Source: Chloroflexota bacterium
Lineage (GTDB): Bacteria; Chloroflexota; UBA11872; VXOZ01
Assembly: GCA_964291655.2 (NCBI GenBank)
Contig: OZ219802.1
Location: forward strand, 2,272,001 to 2,336,000
DNA: 64,000 nucleotides
Direction of reading: 5' to 3'
Of this stretch, positions 6,014 through 31,602 are shown piece by piece. The notes below the pieces were generated by a model, which saw nothing but the letters and a program-made list of their open reading frames with translations, was not told the DNA's origin and ran no database searches. The translations under genes and the position numbers were made by a program. Position 1 is the first letter of the stretch, and each line of letters opens with the position of its first letter.

Positions 6014-6090
6014 TGGTAGCGCATACGGGATTCGAACCCGTGATCTCCGCCTTGAGAGGGCGGTGTCCTCGGCCACTAGACGAATGCGCC
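6014..6090 (-). tRNA. tRNA-Glu (CTC)
   Basis: GGCGCATTCGTCTAGTGGCCGAGGACACCGCCCTCTCAAGGCGGAGATCACGGGTTCGAATCCCGTATGCGCTACCA; cloverleaf with encoded CCA. Confidence 0.97.
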
Positions 6091-20822: not shown

Positions 20823-21439
20823 AGAAATTGCCCTCTCTTGGCGGCAACCACACTGCAGTTGGTCGCGCATCCGTTTCTCGTCACTGCACTACAAGAATAT
20901 ACCCTAGTCAGTCCAAACATACCCACACACGCGAACTCGCCTGCACGAGGGAATGGCGGGAGACTTGCGCATTGGCCCGGAGGGGCACGACATGTCGTGC
21001 CTCTGCCTCGGTTCCCAGTACCCGCACTGGAGAGACGGGAAACCCACATTCGGGCACGTCCGCGACCCCTGCCCGGGCACACGGGTTACATGTGTTCGGG
21101 GACATAGGTTACACGTTGCCCGGAGTGTGGTGCGTGCCCGCGTTGGATTGCACGCGGCGAGAAGCCGACGCGCCACGTGCGATTCACAACGCGGGAATCC
21201 CCTCTAGCTTGACGTGCGGCGTTCGTCCGTGACAAAATGCGATGCGTAGAAGAGCAATTGCACGCCCATGTAGCACAGTGCGATTGCCGTCTCTTGGCTT
21301 TACGCAGTCGCCTGCGTTACGCCTTTCCCAAAAACAACAGTACCCAAAGACAACTTCTGAATTGTAAAGTGCTCAAAGCGTTGCAAGCAGCCATTGCGCG
21401 TTTGCACACCACAGAGCAATGCCAGTGAGGAGGCGCCAG

Positions 21440-24400
21440 TTGGCCGGGTTCAAGGAAGTCAGTAGAGATCTCGACTTTCCCAGTATGGAGCATCGGATCC
21501 TCAAGTTCTGGGAGGATACCGCTGCTTTTGAGAAGCTTGTCGCGAAGAATAAAGACAATCCCCGCTGGTCTTTCATTGACGGCCCCATTACGGCCAATAA
21601 TCCCATGGGCGTCCACCACGCGTGGGGACGCACCTATAAGGACATCTATCAACGCTACAAGGCCATGCAGGGCTATGCCCAGCGCTATCAAAACGGCTTT
21701 GACTGCCAGGGGCTGTGGTTGGAAGTCGAGGTCGAACGCGACCTCGGTTTCGATTCGAAGCACGAGATCGAGGAATTCGGCCTCGACAACTTCTCCCGCG
21801 AGTGCCGCAAGCGCGTGGAACACTTCTCCTCGGTGCAGACGAACCAGTCCATCCGGCTCGGCCAGTGGATGGATTGGGACAACTCGTACTACACCATGGA
21901 CGATAGCAACATCGAGCACATCTGGTACTTCCTGAAGCGCTGCCACGAGAAGGCCTGGCTCTACAAGGGCTGGCGCTCCATGCCGTGGTGTATTCGCTGC
22001 GGCACCAGCCTTTCGCAGCATGAGCTGGTCGGCACGGACACGTACCGCGAGGTCACGCATCCGAGTATCACGTTGCGGCTGCCGGTAAAGGGACGTGACA
22101 ACGAGTACTTCATGGTGTGGACCACCACGCCGTGGACGTTGGCCGCCAACACCGCGCTGGCCGTGCATCCTGACCTCACCTACGTCGCTGCCGAAGCCGA
22201 TGGCAATACCTACTACCTCTCCAAGGGGACTCTTGAGAGCGTTGGCCGCGGCAAACTCAACGCCGTGCGCGAATTCCGAGGCGAAGAGCTGGTGGGCCTG
22301 GAATATGTCGGCCCTTGGCACGAGTTGCCCGCCCAGCAAGGCTTCTCTACCAAAGTCGTGGGGTGGGACATCGTCGGCGAGGAAGAGGGTACCGGCATCG
22401 TCCACATCGCGCCGGGCTGCGGCGCGGAAGACTATGAGCTTTCGCAGGAGCACGGGCTCCACGTTATCGTGCCCATCGACGGCGACGGCAACTACGGCGA
22501 CGGCTTCGGCCCGCTCGCCGGGCGCAATATCACCGAGACCAACGAGCCGATCTTCGCCGCCCTGGAAGAAGCCGGCATCGTCTACCGCATTGAGGACTAC
22601 ACGCACCGCTATCCCGTGTGTTGGCGCTGTGGGGAAGAGGTCGCCTTTCGTCTGGTAGAAGAGTGGTTCATCTCCGCCGAAGAGATTCGCCCACGCATGC
22701 TGGCGGAAAACCAGACCGTCGACTGGGTTCCTGAATACGGCGGGAAGCGCATGGACGACTGGCTGAATAACATGGGGGATTGGTGCATCTCGCGCAAGCG
22801 CTTCTGGGGTCTGCCGCTGCCGTTCTACCACTGCGAGGACTGCGACCACGTCACGATTGTCGGCACCGTGCAGGAGTTGGAAGACAGAGCTATCGATGCA
22901 GCCAAAGTGCGGGCGCTGCCGGAGCTACATCGTCCGTGGATCGATGAGATAACTATTCGTTGCGAGAAGTGCAACGGCGAGACGGCTCGTATCCCGGAGG
23001 TCGGTGATTGCTGGCTGGATGCCGGCATCGTGCCGTTCTCCACACTCGGCTACCTGGAAGGCAGCGCTGAGTGGGGCAAGTGGTACCCTGCTGACTTCAT
23101 CAGCGAGATGCGCGAGCAGATTCGCCTGTGGTTCTACGCGCTTGCCTTCATGAGCGTCACCCTGGAAGACGTCCGCGCTTACCGTAACGTGCTCATCTAC
23201 GAAAAAGTCAATGACGAGCATGGTAGACCAATGCACAAGAGCCACGGCAACGCCATCTGGTTCGACGACGCCGTTGAGAAGATGGGCGCTGACGTCATGC
23301 GCTGGCTGTATTGCGAAAGCAACACCCAGCAGAACTTGAACTTCGGTTACGGCGTGGCCCAAGACGTGAAGCGACGCCTGCTGCTCTTCTGGAATGTCTA
23401 TAATTTCTTCGTAACGTATGCCCGCTTGGAGGACTTCGATCCCACCAGTGTCAGTGTGCCCCTCGAAGTGCGGTCAATCCTGGACCGCTGGATCATTGCG
23501 CTGCTCCACAAGCTGGTGCGGGACGTGACCGACGACCTGGAAAAATACGACGCCTACAGCGTTTCCCGTCGTGTGAACGATTTCATCGAGCAGTTGTCCA
23601 CGTGGTACGTGCGGCGCGGCCGCCGCCGCTATTGGAAGTCCGGCCAGGACCGCGACACCCTCTCGGCATACCAGACGCTCTACGAAGTGCTGACCACCTT
23701 CACGCGCACGATTGCGCCCATCATGCCGTTCCTCAGTGAAGAGGTGTACCAGAACCTTGTCCGCGCGGTAGATAGCGATGCGCCGGAGAGCGTGCACCAC
23801 ACCGAGTGGCCGCGCTACAACGCGTCGCTGATCGATGAAGAACTCCTCGCCCACATGGAACTGGCCCAGCGTGTCGTCAGCCTCGGCCGCGCGGCACGCA
23901 GCACGAGCAAGATCAAGGTACGCCAACCTTTGCCGGAAATACTGGTGCACGTGAAAACCGCTGACGAGCAAGCGGGGCTCGAACGCTTGCAGGAGCACAT
24001 CCTCAGCGAACTGAATGTAAAGGCGCTGCGTTTCGTTGGACCGGAAGAGGAGCTGGTGACATACGAACTCAAACCGCGCTTCAAACTGCTCGGCCCCAAG
24101 TATGGCAGGCAGGTCAAGGCCATCGCGGCGGCGTTGGGCCGGAGCGACGCCCAGGCCGGCGCGCGGCTCGTTGCCCACGGCAAGCCCGTCACGGTAGAGG
24201 TTGAGGGAGAGCAAATCGAGCTCCAGCCGGAAGAAGTGGACGTGCAGGCCCGTGAGCGGGCAGACTACAGCGTGGCCACTGAAGAAGGGTACTTGGTGGC
24301 GCTCCACACGGAGATATCACTCGATCTCGAACGGGAAGGTATGGCGCGAGAACTCATCCATCACGTCCAGAACTTGCGGCGCGCGGCGAACTTCGACCTC

Positions 24401-24610
24401 TCCGATCGCATCGTGACGTACGTGGGAGTAAGCGACGGGGAGGCGGATCAAGCGAATGTGTCAGCCATGCTGGACGCCCACAGCGATGCCGTGGCCCAGG
24501 AGACGCTCTCCATGCGCGTCGAATCAACGCATGGGCCGGATGAGGCGCATCAAGAGACCGTTGACCTTAACGGCATATCTGTGAAGCTTGGTGTGGTACG
24601 TGCATCATAA
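21440..24610 (+). CDS. ileS: isoleucyl-tRNA synthetase (long, type 2-like)
   Basis: DGPITANNPMGVHH, WTTTPWTL, DWCISRKRFWG, PMHKS; TTG start at 21440 after GAGGAGG. Confidence 0.95.
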   Translation: MAGFKEVSRDLDFPSMEHRILKFWEDTAAFEKLVAKNKDNPRWSFIDGPITANNPMGVHHAWGRTYKDIYQRYKAMQGYAQRYQNGFDCQGLWLEVEVERDLGFDSKHEIEEFGLDNFSRECRKRVEHFSSVQTNQSIRLGQWMDWDNSYYTMDDSNIEHIWYFLKRCHEKAWLYKGWRSMPWCIRCGTSLSQHELVGTDTYREVTHPSITLRLPVKGRDNEYFMVWTTTPWTLAANTALAVHPDLTYVAAEADGNTYYLSKGTLESVGRGKLNAVREFRGEELVGLEYVGPWHELPAQQGFSTKVVGWDIVGEEEGTGIVHIAPGCGAEDYELSQEHGLHVIVPIDGDGNYGDGFGPLAGRNITETNEPIFAALEEAGIVYRIEDYTHRYPVCWRCGEEVAFRLVEEWFISAEEIRPRMLAENQTVDWVPEYGGKRMDDWLNNMGDWCISRKRFWGLPLPFYHCEDCDHVTIVGTVQELEDRAIDAAKVRALPELHRPWIDEITIRCEKCNGETARIPEVGDCWLDAGIVPFSTLGYLEGSAEWGKWYPADFISEMREQIRLWFYALAFMSVTLEDVRAYRNVLIYEKVNDEHGRPMHKSHGNAIWFDDAVEKMGADVMRWLYCESNTQQNLNFGYGVAQDVKRRLLLFWNVYNFFVTYARLEDFDPTSVSVPLEVRSILDRWIIALLHKLVRDVTDDLEKYDAYSVSRRVNDFIEQLSTWYVRRGRRRYWKSGQDRDTLSAYQTLYEVLTTFTRTIAPIMPFLSEEVYQNLVRAVDSDAPESVHHTEWPRYNASLIDEELLAHMELAQRVVSLGRAARSTSKIKVRQPLPEILVHVKTADEQAGLERLQEHILSELNVKALRFVGPEEELVTYELKPRFKLLGPKYGRQVKAIAAALGRSDAQAGARLVAHGKPVTVEVEGEQIELQPEEVDVQARERADYSVATEEGYLVALHTEISLDLEREGMARELIHHVQNLRRAANFDLSDRIVTYVGVSDGEADQANVSAMLDAHSDAVAQETLSMRVESTHGPDEAHQETVDLNGISVKLGVVRAS

Positions 24611-24782: not shown

Positions 24783-25017
24783 GAGACTTTTGCGTAACCC
24801 TAGCGGAAGCGAGAGAGTTCCCTCTCCCTCGACGGGAGAGGGCTAGGGTGAGGGTGAATCTCCTGCATTCGCTACATATGTATGCCTATTTTTAGGTGAT
24901 ATATCTTGACACCACACATGTTATGAGGCCATTGCAGCCAAGAGACCCCCTCACCCCAACCTTCTCCCCAGGGAGAGGGAGTGCCCCTGCCTGAAGGTGG
25001 GGTTATGCAAAGGTCTC
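24783..25017. mobile_element. MITE-like element with GAGAC(C/T)TTTGC-type TIRs inserted in a CCCTCTCCC repeat
   Basis: GAGACTTTTGCGTAACCC ... GGGTTATGCAAAGGTCTC enclosing an inverted pair of CCCTCACCC/CCCTCTCCC repeats; related copy at 56625. Confidence 0.7.
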
Positions 25018-25119
25018 CTGAGGGAGAGGGCCAGGGTGAGGGAGAGTCGGCGCGGGCCAGTCCGAATTTACGACAAAGTTACTTTATGTGACGAGTTTCA
25101 AAGAGAAAGGAAGTAGATC

Positions 25120-25581
25120 ATGGCTGAGAGTGCGCAGACGCTGCCACGAATCTTCAAGTGGTTTGGGGAGGGCAAATTCGCCGCCTCCGGCTTCCCCGAG
25201 ACTGAGGAAGAGCTATCCGCGGTGGCGGGGCAAGGCATCAAGCACATCGTCGCCGCCTCGCGCAAGGGGCCGGATACGGCGACCATCGAGCGACTCGGCA
25301 TGACCGTGGACAACTTTAGCGGCGTCAGCAGCGATGTGGCGACTCTCGATGCCGCGGTGGAGTCCCTGCACGCGGCTGCCCTGCGCGACGACAAAGCCCT
25401 CATTCACTGAGGCTCCGGTTTCGGCGGGGCCGGTACGGTCCTGGCAGGATACTTGGTGAAGTACGAAGGCTACGCTCCGGCGGACGCAGTGCAAGCGCTG
25501 CGTGACTTCCGCCCGGGCGATTTGAAAGGCGGCGAGGTGGTTGAATTCATCGCAGAGTACGCGGAGAGTCTGAACTCTTAG
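25120..25581 (+). CDS. candidate selenoprotein with a dual-specificity/protein-tyrosine phosphatase fold (TGA at 25408-25410 read as Sec)
   Basis: Reading through the TGA gives ALIH-U-GSGFGGAGTVLAGYLVKYEGYAPADAVQALRDFRPG...LNS*, matching the DSP pattern VHCxxGxGRTGTxxAxYL...AxxAxxxxRxxRPG. AAAGGAAG RBS upstream, SECIS-like hairpin after the TGA, terminator after the TAG. Confidence 0.78.
25425..25443 (+). promoter_or_regulatory. putative bacterial SECIS element
   Basis: CGGGGCCG-GUA-CGGUCCUG, an 8-bp stem whose loop GU lies at +23/+24 after the UGA. Confidence 0.65.
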
Positions 25582-25608
25582 GTGATCTACGCGCCCAATT
25601 TGAGAAGG

Positions 25609-25647
25609 AGAGAAGCCCGCTACTCTGCATATAGCGGGCTTCTCTCA
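25609..25647. terminator. hairpin terminator between convergent genes
   Basis: GAGAAGCCCGCTA...TAGCGGGCTTCTC. Confidence 0.7.
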
Positions 25648-25703: not shown

Positions 25704-25979
25704 CTATCTCGGAATGAGTTCCAGTGCCGCCAGCACACCTGCCAAGGCTACAAACAGCAGCACAAGTTGAATCGTCAATTGGTTAAAGCGTTTCTCCAAT
25801 TGGCTAAAGCGCTTCTCAATCCGCAACTCCAGTGCTTGCAGTTCCGTCCTCAAGCCTGCCTTCGTTACGAGTTCACCGTGCTCCGCACTTACTAGGCCAA
25901 CAAGCACTTCAGCTTGGGCCTCTTCGAAGCCGGCCCCCGTAAGATTCTTCACTGCCTTGTGGGTGTCAAGCACTGCCAT
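25704..25979 (-). CDS. DUF1640/CCDC90-like small coiled-coil protein with a C-terminal TM helix
   Basis: LDTHKAVKNLTGAGFEEAQAE...LVTKAGL, coiled coil, hydrophobic C-terminus. Confidence 0.8.
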   Translation of the reverse strand: MAVLDTHKAVKNLTGAGFEEAQAEVLVGLVSAEHGELVTKAGLRTELQALELRIEKRFSQLEKRFNQLTIQLVLLFVALAGVLAALELIPR

Positions 25980-31530: not shown

Positions 31531-31602
31531 CTGGGGCGGTAGGATTCGAACCTACGAATGCGGGCTCCAAAGGCCCGTGCCTTACCGCTTGGCGACGCCC
31601 CA
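31531..31602 (-). tRNA. tRNA-Gln (TTG), CCA not encoded
   Basis: TGGGGCGTCGCCAAGCGGTAAGGCACGGGCCTTTGGAGCCCGCATTCGTAGGTTCGAATCCTACCGCCCCAG, followed by CCG. Confidence 0.96.

Follow-up and report, generated by a model that had tools for sequence, protein, structure and literature searches.

Does the TGA at nucleotides 25408-25410 of the stretch studied here end a gene of 96 codons, or does it encode selenocysteine (Sec, U) in the active site of a longer protein, and what would that protein do? The stretch, called the window below, comprises 64,000 nt of the genome of a Chloroflexota bacterium (contig OZ219802.1 of assembly GCA_964291655.2), and an earlier note, made from its sequence, had proposed that the gene specifies a selenoprotein built on a phosphatase fold. 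With the standard bacterial code (table 11), the open reading frame (ORF) starts at ATG 25120, which is the earliest possible start given the in-frame TAG just before it (25114-25116), and runs on the forward strand to position 25410, where it ends in ...KALIH-TGA; the halt of the 96-residue ORF that the note had placed at TGA 25408, after ALIH, was thus found to be correct to the base. Past the TGA, the frame goes on for 56 further sense codons (25411-25578), encoding GSGFGGAGTVLAGYLVKYEGYAPADAVQALRDFRPGDLKGGEVVEFIAEYAESLNS, and terminates at TAG 25579-25581. This downstream sequence is as the note had written it, and a product of 153 residues, with Sec at position 97, is obtained when the TGA is taken as U. 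The features of the locus are gathered in Table 1.

The distribution of the TGA was surveyed by a six-frame search reading through stops in 98 species genomes of the class, which belong to 20 genera. Exactly one in-frame TGA, always at the same column, was found in the genome of the window and in the 16 other genomes of its genus, with 83-97% identity over all 153 residues. In a second genus, a single TGA was present at the same column in 9 genomes out of 9, at 45-49% identity to the window protein. Class-wide, the TGA-containing gene occurs in 26 of the 98 species genomes and in 2 of the 20 genera; when 401 genomes sampled across the phylum were searched, the matches listed included 11 TGA forms, all from the genus of the window. 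Two metagenome contigs add to this set. Contig L100 carries a gene of the type found in the window's genus, with its TGA, and ends about 37 codons past it; contig L101 represents a third clade, with a complete gene of 152 residues (VLVH-U-GSGHGGAGT) showing 43% identity to the window protein. In all 28 genes (26 genomes plus L100 and L101) the TGA codon lies within the motif [LIV]-H-U-G-[SGA]-G-[FYH]-G-G-A-G-T. The TGA is therefore not peculiar to this assembly and, because the same TGA followed by an open and conserved frame recurs in 26 species genomes and two metagenome contigs, the pattern is beyond chance.

To measure selection on either side of the TGA, the ratio of nonsynonymous to synonymous substitutions (dN/dS) was derived from Nei-Gojobori counts over all pairs, the downstream segment being codons +13 to +54. 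In the genus of the window, dN/dS was 0.112 upstream of the TGA and 0.082 downstream, the proportion of synonymous differences (pS) being 0.51 on both sides; in the second genus the values were 0.215 and 0.155. Amino-acid identity between the two genera was likewise 0.49 upstream and 0.50 downstream. The segment that follows the TGA is thus conserved under purifying selection (dN/dS of 0.08). A sequencing error or a nonsense mutation was ruled out by the conservation over 26 species together with these ratios. More generally, the view that the TGA is a true stop (through nonsense mutation, sequencing error or decay of the gene), so that only the 96-residue fragment is made and the downstream sequence is a relic, agrees with the 31 public entries of 93-99 residues that end at the His preceding the TGA, those of them that are named being called 'hypothetical protein'. 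Against it stand the recurrence of the TGA in 26 species and two metagenome contigs, the downstream dN/dS of 0.08 at a pS of 0.51, and the fact that a 96-residue product would be without the phosphate-binding loop (P-loop) and three helices of the fold, as judged from the structural model described below; we consider this view extremely improbable. Two other candidates were rejected. Global reassignment of TGA was ruled out, 315 of 1048 long stop-to-stop frames of the genome ending in TGA. A split gene giving a separate C-terminal product would have to use the sole downstream in-frame start, TTG 25453 (42 residues), which would leave out the P-loop; it was discarded because codons +1 to +12 align residue for residue with the P-loop of the family.

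The genome of the window has the complete machinery for selenocysteine, that is selA (562 bits), selB (357 bits), selD (383 bits) and selC, the gene of tRNA-Sec (67 bits), each above its curated cut-off. Since selA was detected in 53 of the 61 class genomes searched, the Sec trait is far wider than the phosphatase-fold gene. Other selenoprotein genes were noticed outside the window. The selD gene is one itself (SCAG-U-AGK; contig C2, 2457313-2458242, reverse strand, locus L013). Further single-TGA genes, with the TGA on Cys-type motifs, are one FdhA-like, four AhpC/TSA-like (peroxiredoxin-like, Prx-like) and one Rdx/SelW-like gene (C1:50248, C1:187866, C2:821556, C2:822342, C2:1286806 and C2:979281 of the window's genome, G000); two of the AhpC/TSA-like genes form a divergent neighbouring pair with T-U-PVC. 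The selenoproteome of this genome therefore counts at least 8 genes.

A hairpin suited to the role of selenocysteine insertion sequence (SECIS) is found within the coding sequence (Table 1). It begins 14 nt past the UGA, and the distance from the UGA to its loop is 22 nt. As given in the legend of Fig. 2 of PMC13188914, the published bacterial SECIS model calls for a loop of 3-9 nt, a stem of 4-16 bp, a G within the first two nucleotides of the loop, a spacing of 16-37 nt from the UGA and a minimum free energy (MFE) of -7.5 kcal/mol or lower; the hairpin agrees with the model on every one of these points. Further support is provided by the synonymous sites. Codons +5 to +12 are each represented by one codon in the 17 species of the window's genus, where most other conserved codons vary, and pS is 0.075 in codons +1 to +12 versus 0.51 elsewhere. 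The longest codon-invariant run is formed by these same 8 columns (+5 to +12), and was matched in 3 of 100000 shuffles. Moreover, the SECIS core, GGGGCCGGTACGG, is identical in the second genus and in contig L101 in spite of a protein identity of about 45%.

Other selenoprotein genes of the same genome served as controls. A 7-bp stem with a GUA loop is present 33 nt past the UGA of selD, and GUU triloops are found 22 nt past the UGA in the Prx-like and Rdx genes; the stems of these controls are of 6-7 bp, and all share with the 25425-25443 hairpin the same design of a stem closed by a G-U-N triloop. When the whole genome was scanned under the strict requirement that an in-frame TGA have behind it a stem of at least 6 bp with G[GUA]C at its closed end, only the gene under study and selD came out. 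The evidence for translation of the downstream segment would fit any kind of readthrough, including one without selenium (insertion of Trp, Cys or Arg by a near-cognate tRNA, or local recoding). Such a selenium-free mechanism is nevertheless very improbable, given that the hairpin fits the bacterial SECIS model and resembles those of selD, Prx-like and Rdx genes, that the full Sec machinery is present, that TGA otherwise serves as a normal stop codon in this genome, and that the codon aligns with the catalytic Cys of homologues to form a classic Sec/Cys pair. We infer Sec insertion from these elements, and UGA 25408-25410 can with high confidence be said to encode selenocysteine.

As to the fold, the earlier note had proposed that of the protein tyrosine phosphatases (PTP) and dual-specificity phosphatases (DSP), and this was borne out. 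In Pfam, residues 9-122 matched PF22784 (PTP-SAK) with 53.1 bits for a cut-off of 27; PF22785 was also matched (27.4 versus 27), and PF00782 (DSPc) fell just short of its cut-off (33.4 versus 33.5). NCBIfam was found to have no model for the protein, the top match reaching 14.8 bits for a cut-off of 505. Among sequences of solved structures in the PDB, human DUSP23/VHZ was the top relative (E of 5e-14), and the HMMER alignment pairs its HCALGFGRTGT with H-U-GSGFGGAGT, U being placed on the Cys. A model was obtained with AlphaFold2 (AF2) from an alignment of 93 rows (predicted local distance difference test, pLDDT, 90.9; predicted template-modelling score, pTM, 0.85). When compared with the PDB by Foldseek, it matched 2img with a template-modelling (TM) score of 0.84 (146 aligned columns, 27% identity), followed by VHZ, Tk-PTP, SsoPTP, PTPMT1 and Cdc14; altogether, 288 PDB entries were matched at E ≤ 0.001, with DSPs and PTPs at the head.

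The active site was examined by comparing, in one alignment, 12 Sec rows from the three clades with 81 rows of Cys forms. The nucleophile column is U in 12/12 Sec rows and C in 81/81 Cys rows, and the TGA thus stands exactly at the nucleophilic Cys, as had been claimed. The motif H-U-G-S-G-F-G-G-A was also read correctly in the note: the Arg of the P-loop (position 103) is R in all 81 Cys rows versus G in all 12 Sec rows, and position 104 is T in 73/81 versus A in 12/12. No general-acid Asp had been recognized, and none is apparent: the corresponding column is D in 65/81 Cys rows versus a 3-residue gap in 12/12 Sec rows, while pairwise HMMER puts the general-acid Asp of DUSP23 opposite Asn65, a variable position within the Sec clade. 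Further on, position 134 is D in 12/12 Sec rows (S in 74/81 Cys rows), position 137 is G in 12/12 (T in 53/81) and position 140 is V in 10/12 (Q in 79/81), so that the S-I-E-T-x-x-Q segment is converted into D-L-x-G-x-x-V. What the Sec rows retain is the His beside the nucleophile, together with three P-loop glycines, Thr106, Arg128 and Arg131. With Sec for Cys in all 28 genes, Gly for Arg and Ala for Ser/Thr, the HCx5R(S/T) signature of the superfamily is absent. There is no conserved second Cys either: 17 of 26 proteins, that of the window included, have none, and in the other 9 a Cys occurs at position 33, which is variable. In a quick maximum-likelihood tree (midpoint root, supports from the Shimodaira-Hasegawa-like approximate likelihood ratio test, SH-aLRT, only), the Sec rows form one cluster with a stem of 0.96 changes per column and an SH-aLRT value of 100.

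Could the SECIS hairpin itself have imposed the loss of the Arg and Thr? The Gly103 (GGG) and Ala104 (GCC) codons do fall in its 5' arm and form G-U pairs with the 3' arm. This candidate explanation was ruled out by reasoning on the pairing: Arg AGG and Thr ACC codons would pair there as A-U. The canonical residues being allowed by the RNA, their loss is not an RNA artefact.

Is the protein then still a hydrolase or transferase acting on oxyanion esters, i.e. a phosphatase, an arsenate-type reductase or a sulfatase-like enzyme, in which Sec, being the stronger nucleophile, would compensate for the missing residues with the help of, for example, the clade-specific Lys13 or Asp134? The fold, the pair formed by the His and the nucleophile, the three P-loop glycines, Thr106, Arg128 and Arg131 speak in favour of this, as does Lys13, which is invariant in the Sec clade (12/12) and is replaced by Ser in 48/81 Cys forms. 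Yet the Arg (81/81 versus 0/12), the adjacent Thr, the general-acid Asp and the Gln of ETxxQ have been lost together, and the long stem branch (0.96) is indicative of a changed function. In PTP enzymology, removing the P-loop Arg is by itself enough to lower kcat by several orders of magnitude. Because none of the residues that bind or activate a phosphate ester is left, while the amide cradle and the neighbouring His persist, continued phosphatase activity is unlikely; most likely, phosphate-ester hydrolysis is no longer performed, and we rate this alternative as quite unlikely.

We then looked for Cys counterparts of the Sec clade. Searched exhaustively with HMMER, 1.84 billion representatives yielded 670 matches. 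Among the 175 proteins examined, which came from two protein searches, 142 have the Cx5R motif and the 33 others consist of 31 stubs of 93-99 residues ending at the His, a frameshifted variant (P0026) and a C-terminal fragment (P0040); no Cys-form counterpart of the Sec clade was present in these 175. Likewise, a word search with residues 95-153 retrieved no protein of 84-268 residues among 5.8 billion predicted proteins. The rows showing Cys at the Sec column all retain the Arg and stand for distant homologues or paralogues. Genomes of the second genus also hold one such canonical Cys paralogue (VHCAAGLGRTGT; 31-35% identity), and no second copy was found in those of the window's genus with the window protein as query. 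The public stubs are unnamed or called 'hypothetical protein'. Six of them (P0028, P0032, P0034, P0038, P0054 and P0151) are distinct clusters at 35-55% identity, which suggests additional clades; a profile search of metagenome contigs for more distant truncated clades returned L100 and L101 only.

From these elements we propose the following scheme. The UGA at 25408-25410 would be decoded as Sec, SelB and Sec-tRNA(Sec) being recruited by the hairpin with its 8-bp stem and GUA loop, inside the coding sequence. Sec97 would be seated in the glycine-rich cradle of the P-loop, in the place of the nucleophilic Cys of DUSP23/VHZ-type enzymes. The machinery acting on phosphate esters has been dismantled, by change of Arg to Gly and of Ser/Thr to Ala, deletion of the general-acid Asp and replacement of S-I-E-T-x-x-Q, and the selenolate activated by the P-loop would operate as a one-residue redox centre. 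In each cycle the selenolate could be oxidized to selenenic acid, or to a cyclic selenenyl-amide closed on the backbone nitrogen that follows; an external thiol would then give a selenenyl-sulfide, from which the selenolate would be regenerated. The protein would be an enzyme of the peroxidase or reductase type, dependent on a separate thiol reductant because it has no partner Cys.

For the majority of selenoprotein families in prokaryotes, a redox function is assumed (PMC9312934, in part), and conversion of the active-site Cys of PTPs into sulfenic acid and sulfenyl-amide is documented (PMC10298544, in part); among the fold matches is PDB entry 9e9m, a PTP with a cyclic sulfenamide at its catalytic Cys. 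A lone Sec, without resolving Cys, in a cradle where Cys forms sulfenic acid or sulfenyl-amide makes the thiol-dependent redox cycle the simplest possibility. Granted that the protein is a selenoprotein, such a mechanism, which is drawn by analogy, may be right or wrong with about equal chances. As for the complete explanation, i.e. Sec inserted by means of the hairpin, a DSP fold, phosphatase chemistry lost and a redox enzyme gained, we lean slightly towards accepting it. The suggestion of the earlier note that phosphatase chemistry has probably been abandoned for redox or S/Se transfer is strengthened by these arguments from sequence and structure.

Several observations weigh against this explanation. 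One database variant of the gene from the window's genus (P0026, 114 residues) shifts out of frame some 10 codons ahead of the TGA and closes with an Arg/Gly-rich tail; it is either the result of an assembly indel or error or a decayed copy in one population. The TGA and P-loop of P0032, P0038, P0054 and P0151, which are stubs ending at the His, are assumed. With regard to the hairpin, the stem is invariant and hence offers zero compensatory covariation, the sole change being a one-sided one from G-U to G-C in the second genus. The 81-nt stretch from 25400 to 25480, folded alone, gave a z score of -0.69, with 49 of 200 shuffles as good, and an Rfam scan gave no match at the hairpin region of the gene. 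To our knowledge, Rfam contains no general model for bacterial SECIS elements, and its null result therefore says little. The redox mechanism, for its part, is inferred by analogy.

The remaining points concern gene neighbourhoods and RNA libraries. Neighbourhoods were compared at 13 loci of the type found in the window's genus and 7 of the type found in the second one. The former comprise genes for isoleucyl-tRNA synthetase (IleRS), a conserved 91-residue ORF, a class II aminoacyl-tRNA synthetase (aaRS), RecO, CorC and a GlmU-like protein, IleRS and the class II aaRS lying beside the gene in 13/13 loci; the latter comprise DUF2961, a retropepsin-like ORF, Gfo/Idh/MocA and GmrSD, with DUF2961 and Gfo/Idh/MocA in 7/7. 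They are conserved within each genus and have nothing in common between the two. As a functional clue, the neighbourhood was thus rejected: since the neighbours differ between genera, they point to no partner or reductant. Contigs about 90% alike, from RNA libraries (4 runs of one study, labelled sponge metagenome), span the TGA; they match 25204-25457 (X1), 25249-25475 (X2), 25321-25502 (X3) and 25357-25511 (X4), with no listed difference over 25390-25448. They show that relatives are present in those libraries and constitute weak evidence, not proof, of transcription, because an RNA library can hold DNA.

These neighbourhoods bear on two other functions. Sec97 could be a carrier of sulfur or selenium, holding a Se-S persulfide or a Se-Se perselenide in the amide cradle in a rhodanese-like role. 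The persistence of an anion-cradling glycine-rich loop from which the cationic Arg is gone, the single chalcogen residue without resolving Cys, and the existence of rhodanese-type selenoproteins among known families (PMC9312934, in part) are all in keeping with a carrier; on the other hand, no gene of sulfur or selenium metabolism adjoins the gene at the loci of either genus, and the fold is that of DSPs, not of rhodaneses. We think a carrier unlikely, although nothing in the data separates it from a redox enzyme.

The second function would be that of a non-catalytic pseudophosphatase which binds a ligand or a protein, with Sec97 as a redox-sensitive switch. Pseudophosphatases typically keep the fold and lose several catalytic residues, as is the case here, and there is no operon partner that would point to a metabolic pathway. 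However, all species of two genera, and a third clade as well, have kept a costly Sec codon with its SECIS, which argues for a chemically active residue, and dN/dS values of 0.08-0.2 denote a strong constraint over the whole protein; a pseudophosphatase is accordingly an improbable solution.

How does the thiol-dependent selenoenzyme that we favour compare with known systems? DUSP23/VHZ (2img, 4erc), an atypical dual-specificity phosphatase of humans, and its small homologues from bacteria and archaea in PF22784 and PF00782 have the same fold over the whole length and a nucleophile that follows a His; they also share with the present proteins the P-loop glycines, Thr106, the A/YL helix and the R..RP motif. 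The difference lies in their Cys, Arg, Thr, general-acid Asp and S-I-E-T..Q, for which the present proteins have Sec, Gly, Ala, a deletion and D-L-x-G..V, and in the fact that the Sec proteins make up a separate, long-stemmed cluster. The next-best structural matches (TM of 0.77-0.80) are archaeal SsoPTP and Tk-PTP and the designed ShufPTP. The latter, whose catalytic Cys is seen as a cyclic sulfenamide in 9e9m, may by analogy be a model for the selenenyl-amide proposed here; these three are nonetheless Cys enzymes with an intact Cx5R, in which oxidation means inactivation or regulation and is not part of a catalytic cycle.

Among bacterial selenoproteins whose scaffolds are related to phosphatases or bind oxyanions, the ArsC-like (COG1393, UxxS/UxxC) and rhodanese-like families likewise have Sec for an active-site Cys and possess Cys homologues, and they were found by the same logic of Sec/Cys pairs plus SECIS (PMC9312934 and PMC2398784, both in part). 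Their folds are ArsC/Spx and rhodanese, not DSP. Glutathione peroxidase has one Sec; its classical form lacks a resolving Cys within its own chain, and an external thiol serves as the reductant. Selenoperoxidases of this kind have a thioredoxin fold and a Sec/Gln/Trp/Asn catalytic tetrad. The analogy is mechanistic only: the fold here is DSP, not thioredoxin, and the protein is not a member of that family.

The earlier note knew of no characterised family with Sec in a DSP fold, and none was met in the main texts of the selenoprotein reviews and catalogues examined. The word 'phosphatase' is absent from the main texts of PMC13188914, PMC9312934, the deep-Sep paper (PMC12013277) and the BSepDB paper (PMC13326102), supplementary family tables being outside this scope, and from the main text of the eight-families preprint of Haft (10.1101/2022.07.06.499078). 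In the consulted part of the Global Ocean Sampling (GOS) survey, a phosphatase is mentioned only as a PP2C domain fused to a selenoprotein Prx. A full-text literature search returned no relevant paper on a selenocysteine tyrosine phosphatase or a selenocysteine DUSP23. We therefore classify these proteins as a new selenoprotein family within a known fold superfamily, with an active site outside the signature of that superfamily.

Table 1. Features of the candidate selenoprotein gene and its immediate surroundings (positions in the window)
Feature	Position	Strand	Basis or remarks
Shine-Dalgarno-like AAGGAAG	25107-25113	+	6 nt ahead of ATG 25120; sequence inspection
Predicted full selenoprotein coding sequence (153 residues, DUSP23/VHZ-like DSP fold), TAG stop included	25120-25581	+	ORF, Pfam, AF2/Foldseek, orthologues
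UGA as probable selenocysteine codon (U97), at the position of the catalytic Cys in the PTP P-loop	25408-25410	+	conserved TGA; Cys in homologues
Altered P-loop H96-U-G-S-G-F-G-G103-A104-G-T106 (canonical: H-C-x-A-G-x-G-R-T-G-T)	25405-25437	+	alignments
Predicted SECIS core hairpin CGGGGCCG-GUA-CGGUCCUG	25425-25443	+	8-bp stem, 3-nt loop starting with G-U, core MFE -11.1 kcal/mol
15-bp stem-loop 3' of the stop, terminator-like, without U-tract	25608-25646	+	arms 25608-25622 and 25632-25646

A few other features of the locus deserve description. The hairpin that the earlier note had called a terminator, after the TAG, is real as a hairpin (centroid of -28.7 kcal/mol, z score of -3.7, 1 of 200 shuffles equally good); its designation as a terminator was not upheld, since the U-tract is absent and the terminator scan did not call it. 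On the other side, a G/C-rich palindromic repeat element (24940-25060) lies directly upstream of the gene. A 16-mer of it occurs 46 times in the genome, and the four RNA libraries contain many contigs, unrelated in other respects, whose match is confined to 24944-25042; the element looks like a member of an intergenic repeat family that is dispersed. In the window, Rfam matched only two tRNA genes, both on the reverse strand (6017-6090 and 31531-31602).

Farther upstream, the forward-strand gene at 21419-24610 codes for a class I aaRS of the isoleucyl-tRNA synthetase type with a C-terminal DUF5915, and is found directly upstream at all 13 loci of this type. Downstream and convergent with the selenoprotein gene is the 91-residue ORF (25704-25979, reverse strand), present with 71-96% identity at 10 of the 13 loci; it gave a weak CCDC90-like Pfam match, under the cut-off, and is probably a real small gene. 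In one genome of the second genus, a gene for a GmrSD-type restriction endonuclease (L092, 5630-7378, forward strand) is located two genes downstream of the selenoprotein gene, at this locus only among those checked.

The PTP/DSP superfamily is among the best-studied enzyme scaffolds, and we found no report of a natural selenocysteine member. Public annotation cuts every member of the family to a stub of 93-99 residues, and these records need correction. The gene being small and its product soluble-looking and free of Cys, laboratory testing should be easy. A bolder version of the proposed mechanism can be put forward, tentatively and as the less probable case: the family would be Sec-obligate, the phosphatase P-loop having become a selenium redox centre in which the amide cradle, instead of binding phosphate, stabilizes the selenolate, and which works via a selenenic acid and a five-membered selenenyl-amide, a 'protein-built ebselen', with a chemistry that Cys cannot sustain. 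If true, this would explain why a Cys counterpart is missing from 5.8 billion predicted proteins, and the protein would be the first natural selenoenzyme of the PTP superfamily as well as the first member with its catalytic residue in non-phosphoryl chemistry. The substrate could then be host-derived peroxides or halogenated tyrosine metabolites, given the relatives in sponge metatranscriptome libraries; in the latter case, the enzyme would be a deiodinase-like reductive dehalogenase operating in a pocket that evolved for the tyrosine ring. In any event, the Sec clade is unusual among selenoproteins, in that it has no Cys-form counterpart among the proteins examined and combines Sec with the coordinated loss of every other catalytic residue of the phosphatases. 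It constitutes a clean natural case for asking why Sec is used rather than Cys, and how an old scaffold gains new chemistry.

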